Below, piece by piece: positions 1-6,546 of a stretch of DNA of 11,454 nt. The notes beneath the pieces are model-generated. The model was not told the DNA's origin and did not search any database. It saw only the letters and a program-made list of their open reading frames with translations. Made by a program: the position numbers and the translations under genes. Every line of letters begins with the position of its first letter. Positions within the stretch are counted from its first letter, which is position 1. Source of the DNA: a virus (Duplodnaviria > Heunggongvirae > Uroviricota > Caudoviricetes); IMG/VR virus record IMGVR_UViG_2585427747_000005, one strand, 5' to 3'.

Positions 1-1218
1 ATGAACAAACTGAGCGATACCTTGCTAAGGAAACTTCATGGTAAGCCAGCGGAGAAAAACACGTTTTATAGTGATGGCGGAAACCTGAGCGTGAAATATT
101 TAACATCAGGGAAATTGACCTGGTATTTCACATACAGGGCCGGAACGGGAAGGGAGACACGACCCGAACGCATTAAGCTGGGAAGTTATCCTGATCTGAG
201 CCTGAAAGCAGCCAGGGAAAAAGCCGCACAGTGTCGCACATGGCTGGCTGAGGGGAAAAATCCACGTCATGAGATGAATTACACCGTACAGGAAGCGTTA
301 AAGCCCGTAACGGTTGGCGATGCGCTCACCTACTGGCTTGAGTATTACGTAAAGGAAAACCGCGTGGATTATATCGCCCTGAAAAGGCGACTTAATAATC
401 ACGTAATACAGCAGATTGGTGCTATGCCGCTGGATAAATGCGAGCTACGGCACTGGCTGGCCTGTTTTGACCAGGTGGCAAAGCGAACGCCTGTTACTGC
501 CGGATTCGTGCTACAGGCGTGCAAACAGGCGCTTAAGTTCTGCCGTAGGCGGCGCTATGCAATCAGCAACGTTCTGGACGATCTGAACGTTGCGGACGTT
601 GGGAAAAAACCGGATATAAGCGAACGTGTCTTAAGTAACAAAGAACTTGGCGAATTATTGCAGGCACTGGACAAAAAAATATTCTCCCCTTACTACGTCG
701 CGTTAATCCGCCTCCTGATTGTCTTCGGAGCCAGAACGGTAGAACTGAGGTTATCGGAGATCGGGGAGTGGGATTTTACGGAAATGCTATGGACCGTTCC
801 GAAGGAGCACAGCAAAACGAAGGTCGCAATATTCCGGCCCATACCGGAAGCGATCCTGCCGTTCGTCACGCAGCTGGTGGAGCAGAACAGGCACACGGGC
901 TTATTGCTGGGGGAAGTGAAACAGGAGGCCAGCGTATCGCAGTATGGAAGATTAGCGCACTGGAGGCTTAATCACCCTCACTGGTCACTGCATGACATCC
1001 GGCGCACCTTTACAACCATGCTGAACGATTTAGGCGTTGATCCGCATGTCGTGGAGCAGCTTACAGGCCACCAGATGCCAGGAATGCAGCGAGTTTATAA
1101 TCATTCCCGTTATCTGGATGCGAAACGCAATGCGCTGGATATGTGGACGGAGCGGTTAGGGATACTGGCGGGAAAACATGAAAACGTAACCACGCTACCC
1201 GTAGCCAGAAGAAAATAA
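1..1218 (+). CDS. int: Tyrosine site-specific integrase, P4/CP4-57 family
   Basis: 405-aa ORF starting with ATG at 1; N-terminal arm-binding-type region (SDGGNLSVKY..WYFTYR); C-terminal catalytic motifs HDIRRT and VYNHSRY (HxxR and the catalytic Tyr). Confidence 0.9.
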   Translation: MNKLSDTLLRKLHGKPAEKNTFYSDGGNLSVKYLTSGKLTWYFTYRAGTGRETRPERIKLGSYPDLSLKAAREKAAQCRTWLAEGKNPRHEMNYTVQEALKPVTVGDALTYWLEYYVKENRVDYIALKRRLNNHVIQQIGAMPLDKCELRHWLACFDQVAKRTPVTAGFVLQACKQALKFCRRRRYAISNVLDDLNVADVGKKPDISERVLSNKELGELLQALDKKIFSPYYVALIRLLIVFGARTVELRLSEIGEWDFTEMLWTVPKEHSKTKVAIFRPIPEAILPFVTQLVEQNRHTGLLLGEVKQEASVSQYGRLAHWRLNHPHWSLHDIRRTFTTMLNDLGVDPHVVEQLTGHQMPGMQRVYNHSRYLDAKRNALDMWTERLGILAGKHENVTTLPVARRK

Positions 1219-1583: not shown

Positions 1584-1772
1584 GTGTTAAGCACTGATCG
1601 GTTTATACGTGAAAAAGAATGCGAAAAACTAACCGGCCTTAGCCGTACGTGTCGCTACCGCCTGGAAAAGGCCGGACAATTCCCATCACGTCGTAAACTT
1701 GGCGGTCGTTCCGTTGGATGGTCTTTATCCGAGGTTCTGGCCTGGAAGGATAGCTGCAAGGCAGTTCATTAA
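1584..1772 (+). CDS. alpA: AlpA-family (Xis-like) transcriptional regulator / recombination directionality factor
   Basis: GTG start at 1584 preceded by a strong Shine-Dalgarno (AAAGGGGGG, 1571-1578); HTH segment LTGLSRTCRYRLEKAGQFP and KLGGRSVGW typical of the AlpA family. The track ORF starts at a TTG at 1503, which is unlikely. Confidence 0.8.
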   Translation: MLSTDRFIREKECEKLTGLSRTCRYRLEKAGQFPSRRKLGGRSVGWSLSEVLAWKDSCKAVH

Positions 1773-1918
1773 TCACGCTGGCGGCACGCAGCCGCCACAC
1801 ATCAATCATCTGAACACAGAGCTATAACCATGAAGATTGAATATACGCCAGAACGTGGGCGGGGATTCGTTCGCCCTGGTGAAACTGAAAAACAACAAAA
1901 TTGGGGTTTTTCAGGTAT

Positions 1919-1948
1919 AAAAAAAGCGGCCCCGAAATGGAGCCGCCT
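1919..1948 (-). terminator. Rho-independent terminator for the leftward small-gene operon
   Basis: On the minus strand GGCGGCUCC-AUUUC-GGGGCCGC forms an 8-bp stem with a 5-nt loop, followed by a 7-U run. Confidence 0.6.
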
Positions 1949-2041
1949 TTCTGAACAGATAACCCGCTGCGCCGTTTGTGTGTGTGATCCCAAACATAAG
2001 CACGGGGATGATAGCCGTTATCAGGCTGGTGGGCAATGCAA

Positions 2042-2230
2042 TCAGTCTGGTTCAGTTCGTTGCCATACCTGCAATGAGCGCTTTTCCCTGTACTCTTTAA
2101 GGAATTGCTCAAGGGCAAAAGCACATGGCGCGAATCTTTCTGATTCATGCTCTATCTTTCTGCGCCGTCTTTTCCGTGCCGGTGATAATGTTTTGGTCAA
2201 TTCTTTATCGGTCATTGTGTTGTCCTGCAT
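2042..2230 (-). CDS. Small basic hypothetical protein (RKRRRRK tract)
   Basis: 62-aa ORF. The likelier start is the internal ATG at 2215, which has an AGGA Shine-Dalgarno; it lies 42 nt downstream of the RHH-like gene and upstream of the minus-strand terminator. Confidence 0.45.
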   Translation of the reverse strand: MQDNTMTDKELTKTLSPARKRRRRKIEHESERFAPCAFALEQFLKEYREKRSLQVWQRTEPD

Positions 2231-2272
2231 AGCAATGCGCCGTAATACCTTACACCACGGCGCTGATGGTGA

Positions 2273-2452
2273 TTACTCTGGTTCTTTGGCCTTGCGCCGC
2301 TGGCGATATTCAACTTCTCGTTTTAATGCCGCAGTAACAAATTGCCCCGTACTTTCGCCAGGCATTTTTACCGCCTCAACATTGTTCATAACTTCATGCG
2401 GAACCCTTGCCGCAACGGTTTGTGATTTTGCGTTTACCGCTTTTGTCGCCAT
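2273..2452 (-). CDS. Ribbon-helix-helix (Arc/CopG-like) DNA-binding protein, candidate repressor
   Basis: 59-aa ORF (MATKAVNAKSQTVAARVPHEVMNNVEAVKMPGESTGQFVTAALKREVEYRQRRKAKEPE), below the track cutoff; GAGGGG Shine-Dalgarno 8 nt before the ATG at 2452; strand-helix-helix pattern; adjacent to the operator triplet. Confidence 0.55.
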   Translation of the reverse strand: MATKAVNAKSQTVAARVPHEVMNNVEAVKMPGESTGQFVTAALKREVEYRQRRKAKEPE

Positions 2453-2502
2453 GTGGTGTACCCCTCATAAAAAACAAATGCAGTATGCAGGAAAAAAAAT
2501 AA

Positions 2503-2554
2503 GTGTTCAACACTTGACGTGTTTAACACCTGGGTTTAAATTGGTGTTCAACAC
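2503..2554. promoter_or_regulatory. Three copies of the 11-bp palindromic operator GTGTT-N-AACAC overlapping divergent promoter elements
   Basis: GTGTTCAACAC at 2503-2513, GTGTTTAACAC at 2519-2529, GTGTTCAACAC at 2544-2554; a TTGACG -35-like hexamer at 2514-2519 sits between the first two. Confidence 0.55.
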
Positions 2555-2651
2555 CTTGTTGGCGCAAGGTGCAGAAACGACGAAACCCGGCAGTGCGCTA
2601 ACACTAACCGGGCTTCTAACCACCAACGATAGCGAAAGTATCGAGGTAGCT

Positions 2652-2855
2652 ATGAGAAATCATACCACACACCCGCAAGGGCGGGACTCGCACGACCTGA
2701 ATAAATACATCTGGCGTTTTATCGCCCTGAGCACGGCACAACCGCGCGTGATTACCATCGAGGCCACCAGCGAACAGGAAGCGCGTCAGCAATCTCCGGC
2801 TGGCTGCGTGATGGTATTCGCTGCCCGTATTCGCCAGGGGTCACATCATGCGTAA
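2652..2855 (+). CDS. Icd-like / P4 Kil-region-like small protein
   Basis: 67 aa, GAGGT Shine-Dalgarno; motif YIWRF...ATSEQEARQQ...VFAARIRQG matches my recollection of the host cell division inhibitor Icd-like family. Confidence 0.55.
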   Translation: MRNHTTHPQGRDSHDLNKYIWRFIALSTAQPRVITIEATSEQEARQQSPAGCVMVFAARIRQGSHHA

Positions 2856-3141
2856 AAACCGCTTGCAAAAAATTATCACGGGGCTGTATGCTTCCCCCGT
2901 CGCCCACATGGCGACCGGGTTTGACAGCCTGAATACATCTGGCGGACAGCCGCCCACATCCGATAAGCGGTTTTTTTGTGTCCGTAAACCTACCCATACC
3001 CGCATTATGGCGGGGCGTAACGGGGGAGCCTTTGTGCTCGCTGGTTTCCAGATGACCAGTCTGTCAACCCTGTTACGTCTCGCCACCATGTTTGACAGCG
3101 TAGTAGCGAGACTCCTTAAAATTCATCTGGGAGCCTTTCAC

Positions 3142-3309
3142 ATGGCTGTATCCGCACGCCCTTATTTTGTCTGGCGCTTTATGCAGTGCCTGACAGACAG
3201 CATTGCAATATTCACCGTTACCGCTGCCACTGAGCGCGAAGCACGTGCACAGCTGCCGCACGCACATCTGATTTTTGTCGCCCGTATTCGTCAGGGGGTA
3301 GGCTTATGA
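3142..3309 (+). CDS. Icd-like paralog (second copy)
   Basis: 55 aa from the ATG at 3142 (GGAG Shine-Dalgarno); YFVWRF...ATEREARAQ...FVARIRQG parallels the first copy. A longer in-frame ORF starts at 2848 but its N-terminal 98 aa look non-protein-like. Confidence 0.5.
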   Translation: MAVSARPYFVWRFMQCLTDSIAIFTVTAATEREARAQLPHAHLIFVARIRQGVGL

Positions 3310-3539
3310 GTCAGGAAATCACACTACAACAGGCAGCAGAACGCGCCCACCAAATCGAAGTTATTTGCGCACTGGCAGAGGATTACCCTGGCATGATGAC
3401 CGACAGCGAATCAGGGGCAATCATCGGCTTACTTAAACGCCTTAGCGGTGAGGTCTGCGTATTCCTGAGCGATGAACAGGAAAGAAGAACGCTTATTTCT
3501 AACGAAAAAAAATGCGGAGGGGTACACCATGTGCAATAA
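3306..3539 (+). CDS. Hypothetical small protein
   Basis: 77-aa ORF; ATG overlaps the upstream stop (ATGA), suggesting translational coupling; no recognisable motif. Confidence 0.45.
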   Translation: MSQEITLQQAAERAHQIEVICALAEDYPGMMTDSESGAIIGLLKRLSGEVCVFLSDEQERRTLISNEKKCGGVHHVQ

Positions 3540-3750: not shown

Positions 3751-3976
3751 TGATCGTTTTAATTCCCTGAAACAGGAATTTTCCGGCGTTCCTGATGATG
3801 CGGCTGATGCGCTTTCGTCAATGCCAGAACTTATTAGAGCGGCTTTTTTCTTACTTTCCACGAGAGAATATAAATCAACGGGGCTTGATGTACTGAATAT
3901 CGCCGCCGATTATGCGGAATATGTGGCAGAGGCGCGTTATAGAAGAAAATTTCCTGAGGATGTAAGCCATGCGTGA
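3743..3976 (+). CDS. Hypothetical small acidic protein
   Basis: 77 aa from the ATG at 3743 after a G-rich Shine-Dalgarno; start embedded in ATGCGTGA overlapping the upstream stop. Confidence 0.45.
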   Translation: MRDDRFNSLKQEFSGVPDDAADALSSMPELIRAAFFLLSTREYKSTGLDVLNIAADYAEYVAEARYRRKFPEDVSHA

Positions 3977-4202
3977 TATTTACCACGAAACAATAGACCG
4001 CGCATTTCTTGCACTTTCTCACAGTGAAAACATGCTGGAAATATTGCGCATATGGCTTGAAACACTTGGCGACAATGAACGCGACAAACAAAAATCAAGA
4101 ATTGCCACGGCATTAATAACGCTTCTTGAGCCTGTAATAATGGAACTGCAAGAAATAGATCTATTGCACGACAGATATAAAGAACAGCACACCGGAGAAT
4201 AA
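3969..4202 (+). CDS. Hypothetical small protein
   Basis: 77-aa ORF; ATGCGTGA start/stop overlap with the upstream gene; helical-looking sequence. Confidence 0.5.
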   Translation: MRDIYHETIDRAFLALSHSENMLEILRIWLETLGDNERDKQKSRIATALITLLEPVIMELQEIDLLHDRYKEQHTGE

Positions 4203-4207
4203 AAATA

Positions 4208-4507
4208 ATGAAACTTAAATATTCTGGCTTAACTGCCAGTGGCAACACTCACCCTAAATTTACGCGCGGCGATATTTACCGCGACCAGTACGGCGGCACG
4301 GTAATGATTAAGGGCGTGGAAGAACGGCGCGTAACCTACCGCCGTGAAGGTTACGAATATGATTGCGTGATGCCTGTTTATCAGTTCCGGCGTGATTTTT
4401 CTCTGGTACAGACCGCGCCGCATAACGTGTCCACCAGCAACGCCAGGGCACGGGCAAACATCCAGAAGCTGAAAACCATGATTAACGGATTCAGGGGTAA
4501 AAAATGA
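4208..4507 (+). CDS. Hypothetical protein
   Basis: 99-aa ORF, GGAGA Shine-Dalgarno; stop overlaps the start of the replication gene (ATGA). Confidence 0.5.
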   Translation: MKLKYSGLTASGNTHPKFTRGDIYRDQYGGTVMIKGVEERRVTYRREGYEYDCVMPVYQFRRDFSLVQTAPHNVSTSNARARANIQKLKTMINGFRGKK

Positions 4508-6258
4508 AACTGGCACCGAACGTAAAACAGCAGTCACGCGGCATAAAACACAAAGAAACAGAAGTCATTATTTTTGCGGGTAGTGATGCCTGGTCACACG
4601 CAAAACAATGGCAGGAACATGACGCGCGTATGGCCGGAGATAATGAGCCTCCTGTGTGGCTTGGGGAGCAGCAGTTATCCGAACTGGATAAGCTGCAAAT
4701 TGTGCCGGAAGGCAGAAAATCCGTGCGCATATTCAGGGCCGGATATCTTGCGCCAGTAATGATAAAGGCGATTGGTCAGAAGCTGGCGGCGGCAGGCGTA
4801 CAGGATGCAAATTTTTACCCTGATGGTATGCACGGTCAGAAGGTGGAGAACTGGCGCGAATATCTGGCCCGTGAGCGCCAGAATCTTTCTGATGGTCTGG
4901 TCATTGAGCTTCCGGTAAAGCAAAAGGCGCAACTTTCGCAGATGGCGGACAGTGAGCGCGCGCAGCTGCTTGCCGATCGCTTTGATGGCGTTTGCGTACA
5001 TCCTGAAAGTGAAATCGTTCACGTATGGCGCGGCGGGGGATGGTGTCCGGTCAGCACAATGGAACTTAGCCGCGAAATGGTGGCGATCTATTCAGAGCAC
5101 AGGGCCACTTTCAGCAAGCGCGTAATCAATAACGCCGTGGAAGCGTTAAAAGTTATTGCCGAACCAATGGGCGAGCCGTCCGGCGATTTGTTGCCGTTCG
5201 CCAATGGTGCGCTTGACCTGAAAACGGGGGAATTTTCCCCGCACACGCCGGAGAACTGGATCACCACGCACAACGGCATTGAGTACACGCCACCAGCACC
5301 AGGGGAGAACATCCGCGATAACGCGCCAAACTTTCATAAATGGCTTGAGCACGCAGCCGGAAAAGACCCGCGCAAGATGATGCGTATATGTGCCGCGCTG
5401 TACATGATTATGGCGAACCGGTACGACTGGCAGATGTTTATTGAGGCCACCGGAGACGGCGGGAGCGGTAAAAGTACATTCACACACATAGCCAGCCTTC
5501 TGGCAGGGAAACAGAACACGGTAAGCGCTGAAATGACATCGCTTGATGATGCTGGTGGACGTGCGCAGGTTGTCGGGAGTCGTCTTATCGTCCTGGCTGA
5601 CCAGCCGAAATATACAGGCGAAGGAACGGGCATCAAGAAAATCACGGGCGGTGACCCCGTGGAAATTAACCCGAAATACGAAAAGCGTTTCACGGCGGTA
5701 ATCAGGGCGGTGGTGCTGGCGACCAACAATAACCCGATGATATTCACCGAACGGGCCGGAGGTGTGGCACGTCGTCGCGTGATTTTCCGTTTCGACAATA
5801 TCGTCAGTGAGGCCGAAAAAGACAGGGAGCTACCGGAAAAGATCGCGGCTGAAATCCCTGTCATTATCCGCCGATTGCTGGCGAACTTTACCGACCCTGA
5901 GAAGGCACGGGCTTTACTACTGGAACAGCGTGACGGTGATGAAGCTCTGGCAATAAAGCAACAGACGGATCCGGTTATTGAGTTTTGCCAGTTCCTGAAT
6001 TTTCTGGAGGAAGCGCGCGGCCTGATGATGGGGGGCGGTGGCGATTCAGTGAAGTACACGACCAGGAACAGCCTTTACCGCGTCTATCTGGCGTTTATGG
6101 CATACGCAGGCAGGAGCAAACCGCTAAACGTAAATGACTTTGGCAAGGCTATGAAGCCAGCCGCGAAAGTTTACGGACATGAATATATTACGCGGAAAGT
6201 TAAGGGAGTAACGCAGACTAACGCAATAACAACAGACGATTGCGACGCGTTTTTATAA
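4504..6258 (+). CDS. Replication initiator: P4-alpha-family primase C-terminal domain / SF3-type NTPase
   Basis: 584 aa; Walker A GDGGSGKST, Walker B-like RLIVLADQ, D5_N-like segment LPFANGALDLKTGEF; no obvious TOPRIM primase motif seen in the N-terminal third. Confidence 0.85.
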   Translation: MKLAPNVKQQSRGIKHKETEVIIFAGSDAWSHAKQWQEHDARMAGDNEPPVWLGEQQLSELDKLQIVPEGRKSVRIFRAGYLAPVMIKAIGQKLAAAGVQDANFYPDGMHGQKVENWREYLARERQNLSDGLVIELPVKQKAQLSQMADSERAQLLADRFDGVCVHPESEIVHVWRGGGWCPVSTMELSREMVAIYSEHRATFSKRVINNAVEALKVIAEPMGEPSGDLLPFANGALDLKTGEFSPHTPENWITTHNGIEYTPPAPGENIRDNAPNFHKWLEHAAGKDPRKMMRICAALYMIMANRYDWQMFIEATGDGGSGKSTFTHIASLLAGKQNTVSAEMTSLDDAGGRAQVVGSRLIVLADQPKYTGEGTGIKKITGGDPVEINPKYEKRFTAVIRAVVLATNNNPMIFTERAGGVARRRVIFRFDNIVSEAEKDRELPEKIAAEIPVIIRRLLANFTDPEKARALLLEQRDGDEALAIKQQTDPVIEFCQFLNFLEEARGLMMGGGGDSVKYTTRNSLYRVYLAFMAYAGRSKPLNVNDFGKAMKPAAKVYGHEYITRKVKGVTQTNAITTDDCDAFL

Positions 6259-6270
6259 TTTTTTGCAATG

Positions 6271-6498
6271 GCTGTCTACCCTGTCTACCTGAGTAAAGAA
6301 AAATACATTTAATTCAGTATATTAACTTAGGTAGGCAGCCTTTTTTCACTGTCTACCTACTATCTACCCTCTCTACCTGATTTTACCTGAATCAGACAGG
6401 GAGGTAGATACGGGGTAGATAGTGGATAAAAGCACTCTACCCCGCTGAAAGCCGCGCCATTACTGGCATGAGAGCCAGTAAGGTAGATAAGGTAGACA
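6271..6498. repeat. Origin of replication: iteron array (TGTCTACC and variants, both orientations)
   Basis: TGTCTACC at 6273, 6282 and 6350; ATCTACC at 6362; CTCTACC at 6371 and 6434; inverted GGTAGATA/GGTAGACA at 6403, 6414, 6482 and 6491; immediately downstream of the replication gene. Confidence 0.7.
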
Positions 6499-6546
6499 AG
6501 GGGAGGCACAACTCAAAACTTTTTAAACGAGGGGGTAAAAATAAAA

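Follow-up and report, generated by a model that had tools for sequence, protein, structure and literature searches.

The C4 antisense RNA family and the motif that carries its target sites were defined in 2010 (PMC2864571), and the immI differences that underlie the heteroimmunity of phages P1 and P7 are classical (PMC6906374). In the satellite P4, the long open reading frame (ORF) eta begins upstream of the constitutive promoter and Kil is its truncated form, as PMC10111431 summarises from Forti et al. 1999; only an upstream late promoter gives translation of full-length eta, and this translation prevents termination (PMC10111431). That paper also reports matches to the C4 and isrK models inside Eta-like genes of Gram-negative phage-inducible chromosomal islands (PICIs), and the mechanism of IsrK is described in PMC4825925. 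Here, we analyse an 11,454-nucleotide (nt) stretch of DNA assigned to Caudoviricetes (IMG/VR record IMGVR_UViG_2585427747_000005; the whole stretch is called the window), in which two Icd-like genes, icd1 and icd2, flank a repeat-rich segment of about 290 base pairs (bp) at 2856-3141. We conclude, with a probability of roughly 0.85, that this segment is a satellite immunity module of the same family as P1 immI (c4-icd) and P4 (seqA-cI-seqC-eta/kil).

Family membership, RNA structure, a three-way complementarity with covariation, and the conservation of a nested ORF are demonstrated in this analysis. The segment is a true homologue of the RNA family to which P4 CI belongs: it passes the Rfam C4 threshold (E = 5.8e-13; Table 1), as does P4 CI, which lies inside the old 137-residue 'cI' ORF and scores 74.9 bits on the same model. 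Its minimum free energy structure equals the model structure, with a long closing stem, two enclosed hairpins and a single-stranded 3' segment, and it folds at -47 kcal/mol (z = -6.5). A blastn search with 2911-3100 returned 78% identity to the P1 c4 region (E = 1e-30), 76% to P7 and 80% to D6, and the upstream c4-a1b1 motif matched its own model at E = 2e-9. The P1 record annotates a1, b1, c4, a2, b2 and icd, and the exact spans given here come from the complementary motifs. Within the window, a' is complementary to both a1 and a2, and b' to both b1 and b2.

Table 1. Coordinates of the features of the immunity module, its flanks and the island (positions in the window; scores in bits)
Feature	Position	Strand	Remarks
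Integrase	1-1218		
AlpA-type regulator	1584-1772		Pfam Phage_AlpA
Truncated 'icd-like' pseudogene	1830-2278		
YlcI/YnfO gene	2273-2452	minus	
Upstream promoter-like site	2514-2542	+	TTGACG, 17 nt, TAAATT; promoter scan
Candidate SymR-like cis-antisense RNA	2651 to about 2579	minus	opposite icd1 leader and Shine-Dalgarno
icd1, 67-residue Icd-like gene	2652-2855	+	NF033153, 69.8 bits on residues 19-62
Promoter-like TATGAT	2659-2664	minus	
Eta-like long ORF, 153 codons	2848-3309	+	spans a1b1, C4, a2b2; ends in Icd domain; RefSeq WP_032346737
Candidate constitutive promoter	2863-2892	+	TTGCAA (2863-2868), 18 nt, TATGCT (2887-2892); read by eye; predicted C4-precursor start near 2899
c4-a1b1 motif, upstream copy of C4 targets	2886-2935	+	RF03163, 46.8 bits (threshold 46.7)
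IsrK/seqA-like leader	2899-2977	+	a1b1, GGCGGacagCCGCC hairpin (2941-2954), GCGG+T7 (2967-2977); possible early stop site
Hairpin 1 of a1b1 motif	2899-2915	+	
a1, TTGACAG	2921-2927	+	maps onto P1-annotated a1
b1, CATCTGG	2936-2942	+	maps onto P1-annotated b1
C4/CI-type antisense RNA gene	3003-3090	+	RF01695, 72.6 bits (threshold 45), full-length match 1-87
Mature C4 (predicted), ~79 nt	about 3009-3087	+	ends mapped from P1 c4 annotation (homology)
b', hairpin-2 loop of C4, CCAGATGA	3048-3055	+	
a', single-stranded C4 segment, CTGTCAA	3061-3067	+	
a2, TTGACAG	3092-3098	+	
b2, TCATCTGG	3123-3130	+	overlaps icd2 Shine-Dalgarno
icd2 Shine-Dalgarno GGGAG	3129-3133	+	
icd2, nested Kil-like gene, 55 residues	3142-3309	+	NF033153, 53.8 bits
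DUF5906 primase	4504-6258		SSB, major capsid protein and head decoration protein also on island

An original prediction, made by a model from the letters of this stretch, had drawn attention to repeated motifs in both orientations and had proposed a P4 CI-type RNA switch, a proposal that the family match bears out. All of its motifs were found, at offsets of 0-3 bases. AATACATCTGGCG occurs exactly at 2704-2716 and 2932-2944 and is adjoined by CCTGAATA at 2696-2703 and 2928-2935, while GTTTGACAGC lies at 2919-2928 and 3090-3099. The approximate reverse complementarity of 3043-3070 to 2916-2942 is real and corresponds to the a'/b' and a1/b1 sites; the GGCGGacagCCGCC hairpin stands where it was placed, and the flanking frames do both match the Icd profile. 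A run of seven T is likewise present, at 2971-2977 and not at the 2974-2980 first given. The P4 layout had been given with the RNA between kil and the downstream genes, which needs correcting: in P4, as here, the RNA gene lies upstream of kil/icd. Because the sites annotated in P1 map onto the window in the alignment, the repeats are the a and b sites of P1 nomenclature. They lie far beyond chance, given the Rfam E-values, the fold z-score and the blastn match to P1 c4.

Part of the repetition also invites a reading as debris of a third, frameshifted Icd gene, an origin that had been put forward at the outset as the outcome that would speak against an RNA. Codons 15-22 of icd1 share CCTGAATA...CATCTGGCG with the b1 region (a 13-nt exact match plus the 8-nt match of CCTGAATA), and CTG AAT stands in the same frame in both, before a 4-nt gap. 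Against such an origin, the same a1b1 element is present in P1 and P7 with no icd upstream, which makes a remnant unneeded; the icd1 copy is conserved coding sequence for NKYIWRF, unchanged in relatives with a different b site or with no C4; and a domain profile search of 2856-3141 found no other trace of an Icd domain. We regard this origin as very improbable. We also asked whether the CATCTGG within icd1 (2708-2714) could be a third site bound by C4. Unlike a site that co-evolves, it shows no covariation and stays invariant in relatives that carry other b variants or lack C4, and we keep it as a bare possibility.

Evidence for selection on the pairing comes from the way in which the sites vary. 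We compared the window with 10 E. coli chromosomal relatives (77-92% identity) and with P1 and P7, so that 13 sequences entered the covariation counts. The E. coli relatives, numbered with the prefix L below, were obtained by DNA similarity search; a primase-based contig search gave just three loci (Shigella, Serratia and Morganella). Loop insertions and deletions shift the register and make column counting unsuitable, and b' was scored against b1 and b2 by the longest Watson-Crick run in a matrix of cognate and non-cognate pairs. Nine distinct b' loops occur in the 13 sequences, and b1, b' and b2 vary in concert within each. Cognate b'-b2 runs measure 7-9 nt, as opposed to 6 nt at most (mean 3.6) in non-cognate pairs, and cognate b'-b1 runs measure 7-8 nt versus 5 nt at most. 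The a site exists in two variants, TTGACAG (P1 type) and TTAGCAG (P7 type); a1, a' and a2 agree in 13/13 sequences, and a' and a2 are paired in all of them, with two compensatory positions. The four C4 helices are 100% paired throughout (13/13), three of the four with compensatory changes. Because b1, b' and b2 change together, the pairing of C4 with its sites is under selection. The folding and the covariance comparison that had been suggested for this segment both come out on the side of an RNA.

In the window, an a site of the P1 type is joined to a b variant, CATCTGG, that is unlike that of P1 and of P7. Searches for this exact a'+b' specificity gave 0 phage records and 1 plasmid record, and so offer no indication of cross-talk with P1-like plasmids. 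Taken together, the relatives display an immunity specificity that diversifies by coordinated change at three short sites.

The same DNA probably carries a second layer of information. In our reading, 2848-3309 is an Eta-like ORF with a Kil/Icd gene nested at 3142-3309, as in P4 eta/kil, where the last 65 residues of the 137-residue 'cI' ORF are Kil and Kil itself has the NF033153 domain (76 bits). In the alignment the start codons of icd2 and P1 icd coincide, and the two proteins are 50% identical (E = 1e-12). In the 153-residue product, NF033153, a 48-residue domain, covers residues 107-149 only; the first 98 residues matched no family in Pfam and domain profile searches, and Pfam gave no match for any Icd frame. 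Reading frames are linked by overlaps at either end: the icd1 stop shares bases with the ATG at 2848 (ATGCGTAA, with ATGTGTAA and ATGGATAA as its counterparts in relatives), the icd2 stop overlaps the next ATG (3306, ATGA), and the Icd C-terminal codons CAGGGG precede the next ATG by about 7 nt at both 2848 and 3306. We examined 18 C4 modules for an ORF that spans C4 and ends in an Icd/Kil domain. Every one of the 16 satellite modules keeps it open, among them P4, a Morganella island and the additional upstream modules found in L007, L010 and L016; in P1 and P7 it is closed. Fourteen of the 16 share one phase relative to the RNA; the exceptions are the second modules of L007 and L016, in which the frame is shifted by a -1 indel ahead of the RNA and regained by a +1 indel in the b' loop. 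The 153-codon ORF is probably real.

A protein-coding reading has been the default in annotation: RefSeq lists no RNA feature for the C4 region, which it labels as an 'Icd-like' coding sequence (CDS) or, for L007 and L016, a 'frameshifted' pseudogene. If the region were merely the 5' part of a gene for a 153-residue Icd-like protein, and the repeats had no RNA function, the open ORF, its annotation as a single CDS and the open frame in relatives would all be explained. Such a reading leaves the first 98 codons with no family match. In P1 c4, to which this DNA is homologous, the frame is closed and the annotated product is an RNA; the preserved stems and the three-way covariation among b1, b' and b2 are signatures of RNA. 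We give it next to no credence. Translation of 2848-3309 as a single protein, which the original prediction had set against an RNA switch, is no alternative to the RNA: long ORF and RNA gene coexist, as in P4 eta/kil. One DNA segment would thereby specify a regulatory RNA together with its targets and also an ORF that, once translated, would override this RNA.

Two promoters could feed this arrangement. The candidate constitutive promoter lies inside the long ORF, at the aligned position of the P1-annotated P1c4 (formerly P51b), and comparable hexamers occur at the same position in three other sequence types. The upstream site is surrounded by three GTGTTyAACAC palindromes (2503-2513, 2519-2529 and 2544-2554); in relatives its -35 element is conserved and the operators are variant-specific, and it probably drives icd1 and a long read-through transcript. 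Between the internal promoter and C4 lies the leader, over which the isrK model (RF01394) aligns at full length, beginning about 7 nt after the -10 hexamer and ending at the U run. The same model passes its threshold for the P4 seqA region (60.8 bits) and for module 1 of L007 (63.7 bits). In folding with a1 and b1 blocked, as binding of C4 would block them, an AGCCGC/GCGGUU hairpin forms in the leader directly beside the U7 run, a prediction that hints at C4-dependent early termination.

These elements can be assembled into a two-state scheme. In the quiescent state, the weak constitutive promoter would yield a precursor containing a1b1, C4, a2b2 and icd2, from which C4 would be excised and accumulate. 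On the same kind of transcript, the C4 b' loop would pair with b2 and a' with a2; because b2 covers the icd2 ribosome-binding site, icd2 would go untranslated, the untranslated RNA would then be terminated, and the downstream replication and capsid genes would stay off. Pairing of C4 to a1/b1 would probably favour an early stop at the U7 run. In the induced state, transcripts begun at 2514-2542 or further upstream would be translated through icd1, and ribosomes would move via the start/stop overlap into the Eta-like ORF, across a1b1, C4 and a2b2, so that its translation would render the long transcript insensitive to C4. We infer expression, processing, termination and the two-promoter switch in this way, the quiescent half from homology with P1 and P4 together with the covariation, and the induced half from the P4 precedent and the conservation of the ORF.

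The leader could also be read in another way, as a short terminated RNA that works like Salmonella IsrK and activates translation of a read-through mRNA in trans, and not as a C4 target that promotes termination. Its full-length alignment from just after the predicted -10 to the U run favours this, whereas the score falls short of the isrK threshold; b1 and a1 covary with C4 b' and a', as expected of a C4 target; and P4 seqA, which matches the same model, is reported as a CI target (PMC10111431). We consider an IsrK-like role unlikely, and prefer the leader as a target of C4.

A perfect 11-nt inverted repeat (AAAAACCGCTT / AAGCGGTTTTT) at 2854-2864 and 2965-2975 encloses a1b1. It is present in window-type relatives and not in the L010/L016 or L011 types. 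Because its left arm would be contained only in transcripts begun upstream of the internal promoter, it could alter the fate of the U7 stop site.

Several observations weigh against the module as we have described it. The c4-a1b1 score exceeds its threshold by just 0.1 bit, and the isrK match (35.2 bits) lies below its threshold of 50. The internal promoter agrees with consensus at 8 of 12 positions and was unreported by the consensus scan; the promoter and terminator scan found no site inside 2856-3141 and no canonical intrinsic terminator. Conservation of the long ORF could partly reflect the shared ancestry of closely related E. coli copies. Finally, no antirepressor gene follows icd2, and since the P1 output (ant) is absent, we infer the target that the module would regulate.

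The missing ant gene also bears on whether the module still matters to the island. It could be an intact-looking relic, whose C4 may be made and yet control nothing important, for example if control had moved to the ylcI-operator cassette and AlpA. Many relatives have the ylcI-icd cassette alone, with no C4 module (L018-L023), and icd2 is internally deleted in L010. All elements of the window module are intact, its sites are still mutually complementary, a segment at least 99% identical occurs in 33 E. coli records, and the diversity of variants with preserved pairing argues for ongoing selection. We hold a relic to be improbable, and a functional immunity module the better account. RefSeq displays just a 153-residue 'Icd-like protein' and no RNA gene, and the element that most likely silences the island is invisible in annotation.

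The tandem arrangement of Icd-like genes has an explanation of its own. Icd1 and Icd2 are 42% identical, and three arrangements occur among the relatives: two full C4-icd modules in tandem (L007, L010, L016); a ylcI-leader-icd1 cassette followed by one C4-icd2 module (the window, L008, L009); and the ylcI-icd cassette alone (L018-L023). Because the relatives show these three arrangements, including ylcI-icd alone, the tandem pair of the window is two different regulatory cassettes in series, each ending in an Icd-like CDS that overlaps the start of the next ORF.

Where modules are doubled, the first lies at 1166-1253 in L007, 1163-1250 in L010 and 1142-1229 in L016, and the second near 1622-1731; in L016 the two modules differ markedly in their a and b sequences. 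In the window, the place of the first module is held by the ylcI cassette and the truncated 'icd-like' pseudogene. The recurrent cassette (window 2273-2660; L008, L009, L018-L023 and the Serratia locus L003) consists of a minus-strand ylcI/ynfO, a promoter region of about 200 bp and an Icd/Kil-like gene. Its -35 (TTGA..) is invariant, and operator-like repeats differ per variant, with GTGTTCAACAC three times in the window, GGTGAAATACAC in L009 and GGTGACTTGCAC in L008. These variant-specific operators suggest YlcI-type repressors with matching specificities.

A 341-codon ORF on the plus strand (1830-2855) begins shortly downstream of alpA, crosses ylcI and the promoter region in antisense, and ends in frame with icd1. 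We considered it as a second Eta-like gene and set it aside; the ORF may be fortuitous, because it is not conserved open in L008 or L009. Serratia L003 has a plus-strand ORF of 337 codons (3815-4828) with a similar start (MKI...), out of frame with the kil-like gene.

Opposite the icd1 leader, outside the repeat segment, we noted a candidate minus-strand RNA. The symR model (RF01809) matches at full length with 33.3 bits in the window and with 45.6 bits in Serratia L003 (4390-4461), where the same element lies opposite the start of the Kil-like gene; both scores fall below the threshold of 61, and the relation to SymR is one of resemblance only. Folding of 2579-2651 gives z = -4.9 on the minus strand versus -0.5 on the plus strand. 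Ten instances keep the two hairpins, with compensatory changes and many G-U pairs that are A-C mismatches on the other strand, and a minus-strand -10 box (TATGAT, TATAAT or TACACT) falls in the first icd codons in 10/10, even where the protein differs. The sequence in common with K-12 SymR comprises the 5' end across the start codon, the linker and the loop GUGUUGGCGCAC. Of 5426 complete E. coli genomes, 1520 were found to contain the icd1 leader, and the cassette also occurs in Serratia. The RNA is an unproven candidate, so far undescribed. We advance one further idea tentatively, as a conjecture that we would not bet on at even odds: the C4 b site may act as a hypervariable specificity 'barcode' that reassorts freely among satellites and P1-like phages, with icd1 under a separate SymR-like antisense RNA, so that the tandem Icd genes would be under two antisense RNAs. 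The ylcI-operator-icd cassette would in that case be akin to a type I toxin-antitoxin system with a cell-division inhibitor at its core.

The module sits in an island that is a phage satellite of the Gram-negative PICI-like kind. The window DNA is identical to the chromosome of several E. coli strains, and in E. coli SW4848 it forms an island of about 11 kb inserted in tqsA. Its order is integrase, AlpA, pseudogene, ylcI, two Icd-like CDSs, small ORFs, primase, SSB and capsid genes, and Gram-negative PICIs share the same layout as described in PMC10111431. Downstream of icd2 lie small hypothetical ORFs, a DUF4222 protein, the DUF5906 primase, SSB and the capsid genes; for the ORF at 3306-3539, Pfam and domain profile searches matched no protein family. 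Repeats resembling CTGTCTACC, in both orientations, cluster at 6272-6500 just 3' of the primase gene and yield spurious matches to miRNA models on both strands. This cluster is most likely the iteron-type replication origin of the island.

Set beside the described systems, the locus is closest in DNA to P1 and P7 immI. The order a1, b1, C4 (with a' and b'), a2, b2, icd is the same, homology extends over about 190 nt, and b2 lies over the icd ribosome-binding site with the icd start in the same place. The a variant (TTGACAG/CTGTCAA) is identical to that of P1, whereas the b specificity is CATCTGG/CCAGATG here, GTTAGTG in P1 and GATTGTG in P7. The P1 module has ant1/ant2 coupled to icd, where the window has small ORFs and the primase operon, and no C1 operator was seen here. 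C4 of the P1 module is released from the operon transcript by RNase P and acts as a repressor in trans. In P1 and P7 the frame through the RNA gene is closed, whereas here it is open, and a second icd lies directly upstream in the window, unlike in P1/P7.

In organization, the resemblance is to P4. With blastn there was no detectable similarity to P4, and P4 is linked through the Rfam match and the ORF phase: the RNA family is the same, and the RNA gene is covered, in one and the same phase, by a long ORF with an Icd-like Kil domain at its end. In both, the module precedes the satellite replication genes, and the long ORF is tied to an upstream gene by a start/stop overlap; the candidate promoter of the window would lie inside the long ORF, as the constitutive promoter does in P4. 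Immunity of the P4 type acts on a satellite primase operon through premature, Rho-dependent termination, and a primase operon lies downstream of the module here. The partner of that overlap is an alpA/vis homologue in P4 and another icd here; the primase is of the alpha type in P4 and of the DUF5906 type here; and termination sites have been mapped in P4, whereas those of the window are predicted.

The comparison with IsrK of Salmonella Gifsy-1 is partial: the leader aligns with the whole model (two hairpins, then a hairpin with a U run) below threshold, and carries C4-covarying sites, whereas the IsrK mechanism as described has no such sites. Gram-negative PICIs and helper-embedded PICIs, as presented in the available part of PMC10111431, have the same integrase, alpA, regulatory zone with Icd/Eta-like genes, primase/SSB and late genes, and the same two Rfam matches inside an Eta-like gene; the covariation of variants, the tandem variants and the ylcI-icd cassette were not seen in that part of the paper. 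The locus is a clear but ordinary member of the C4/CI family with its own b specificity, and leaves the established P1/P4 picture unchanged.

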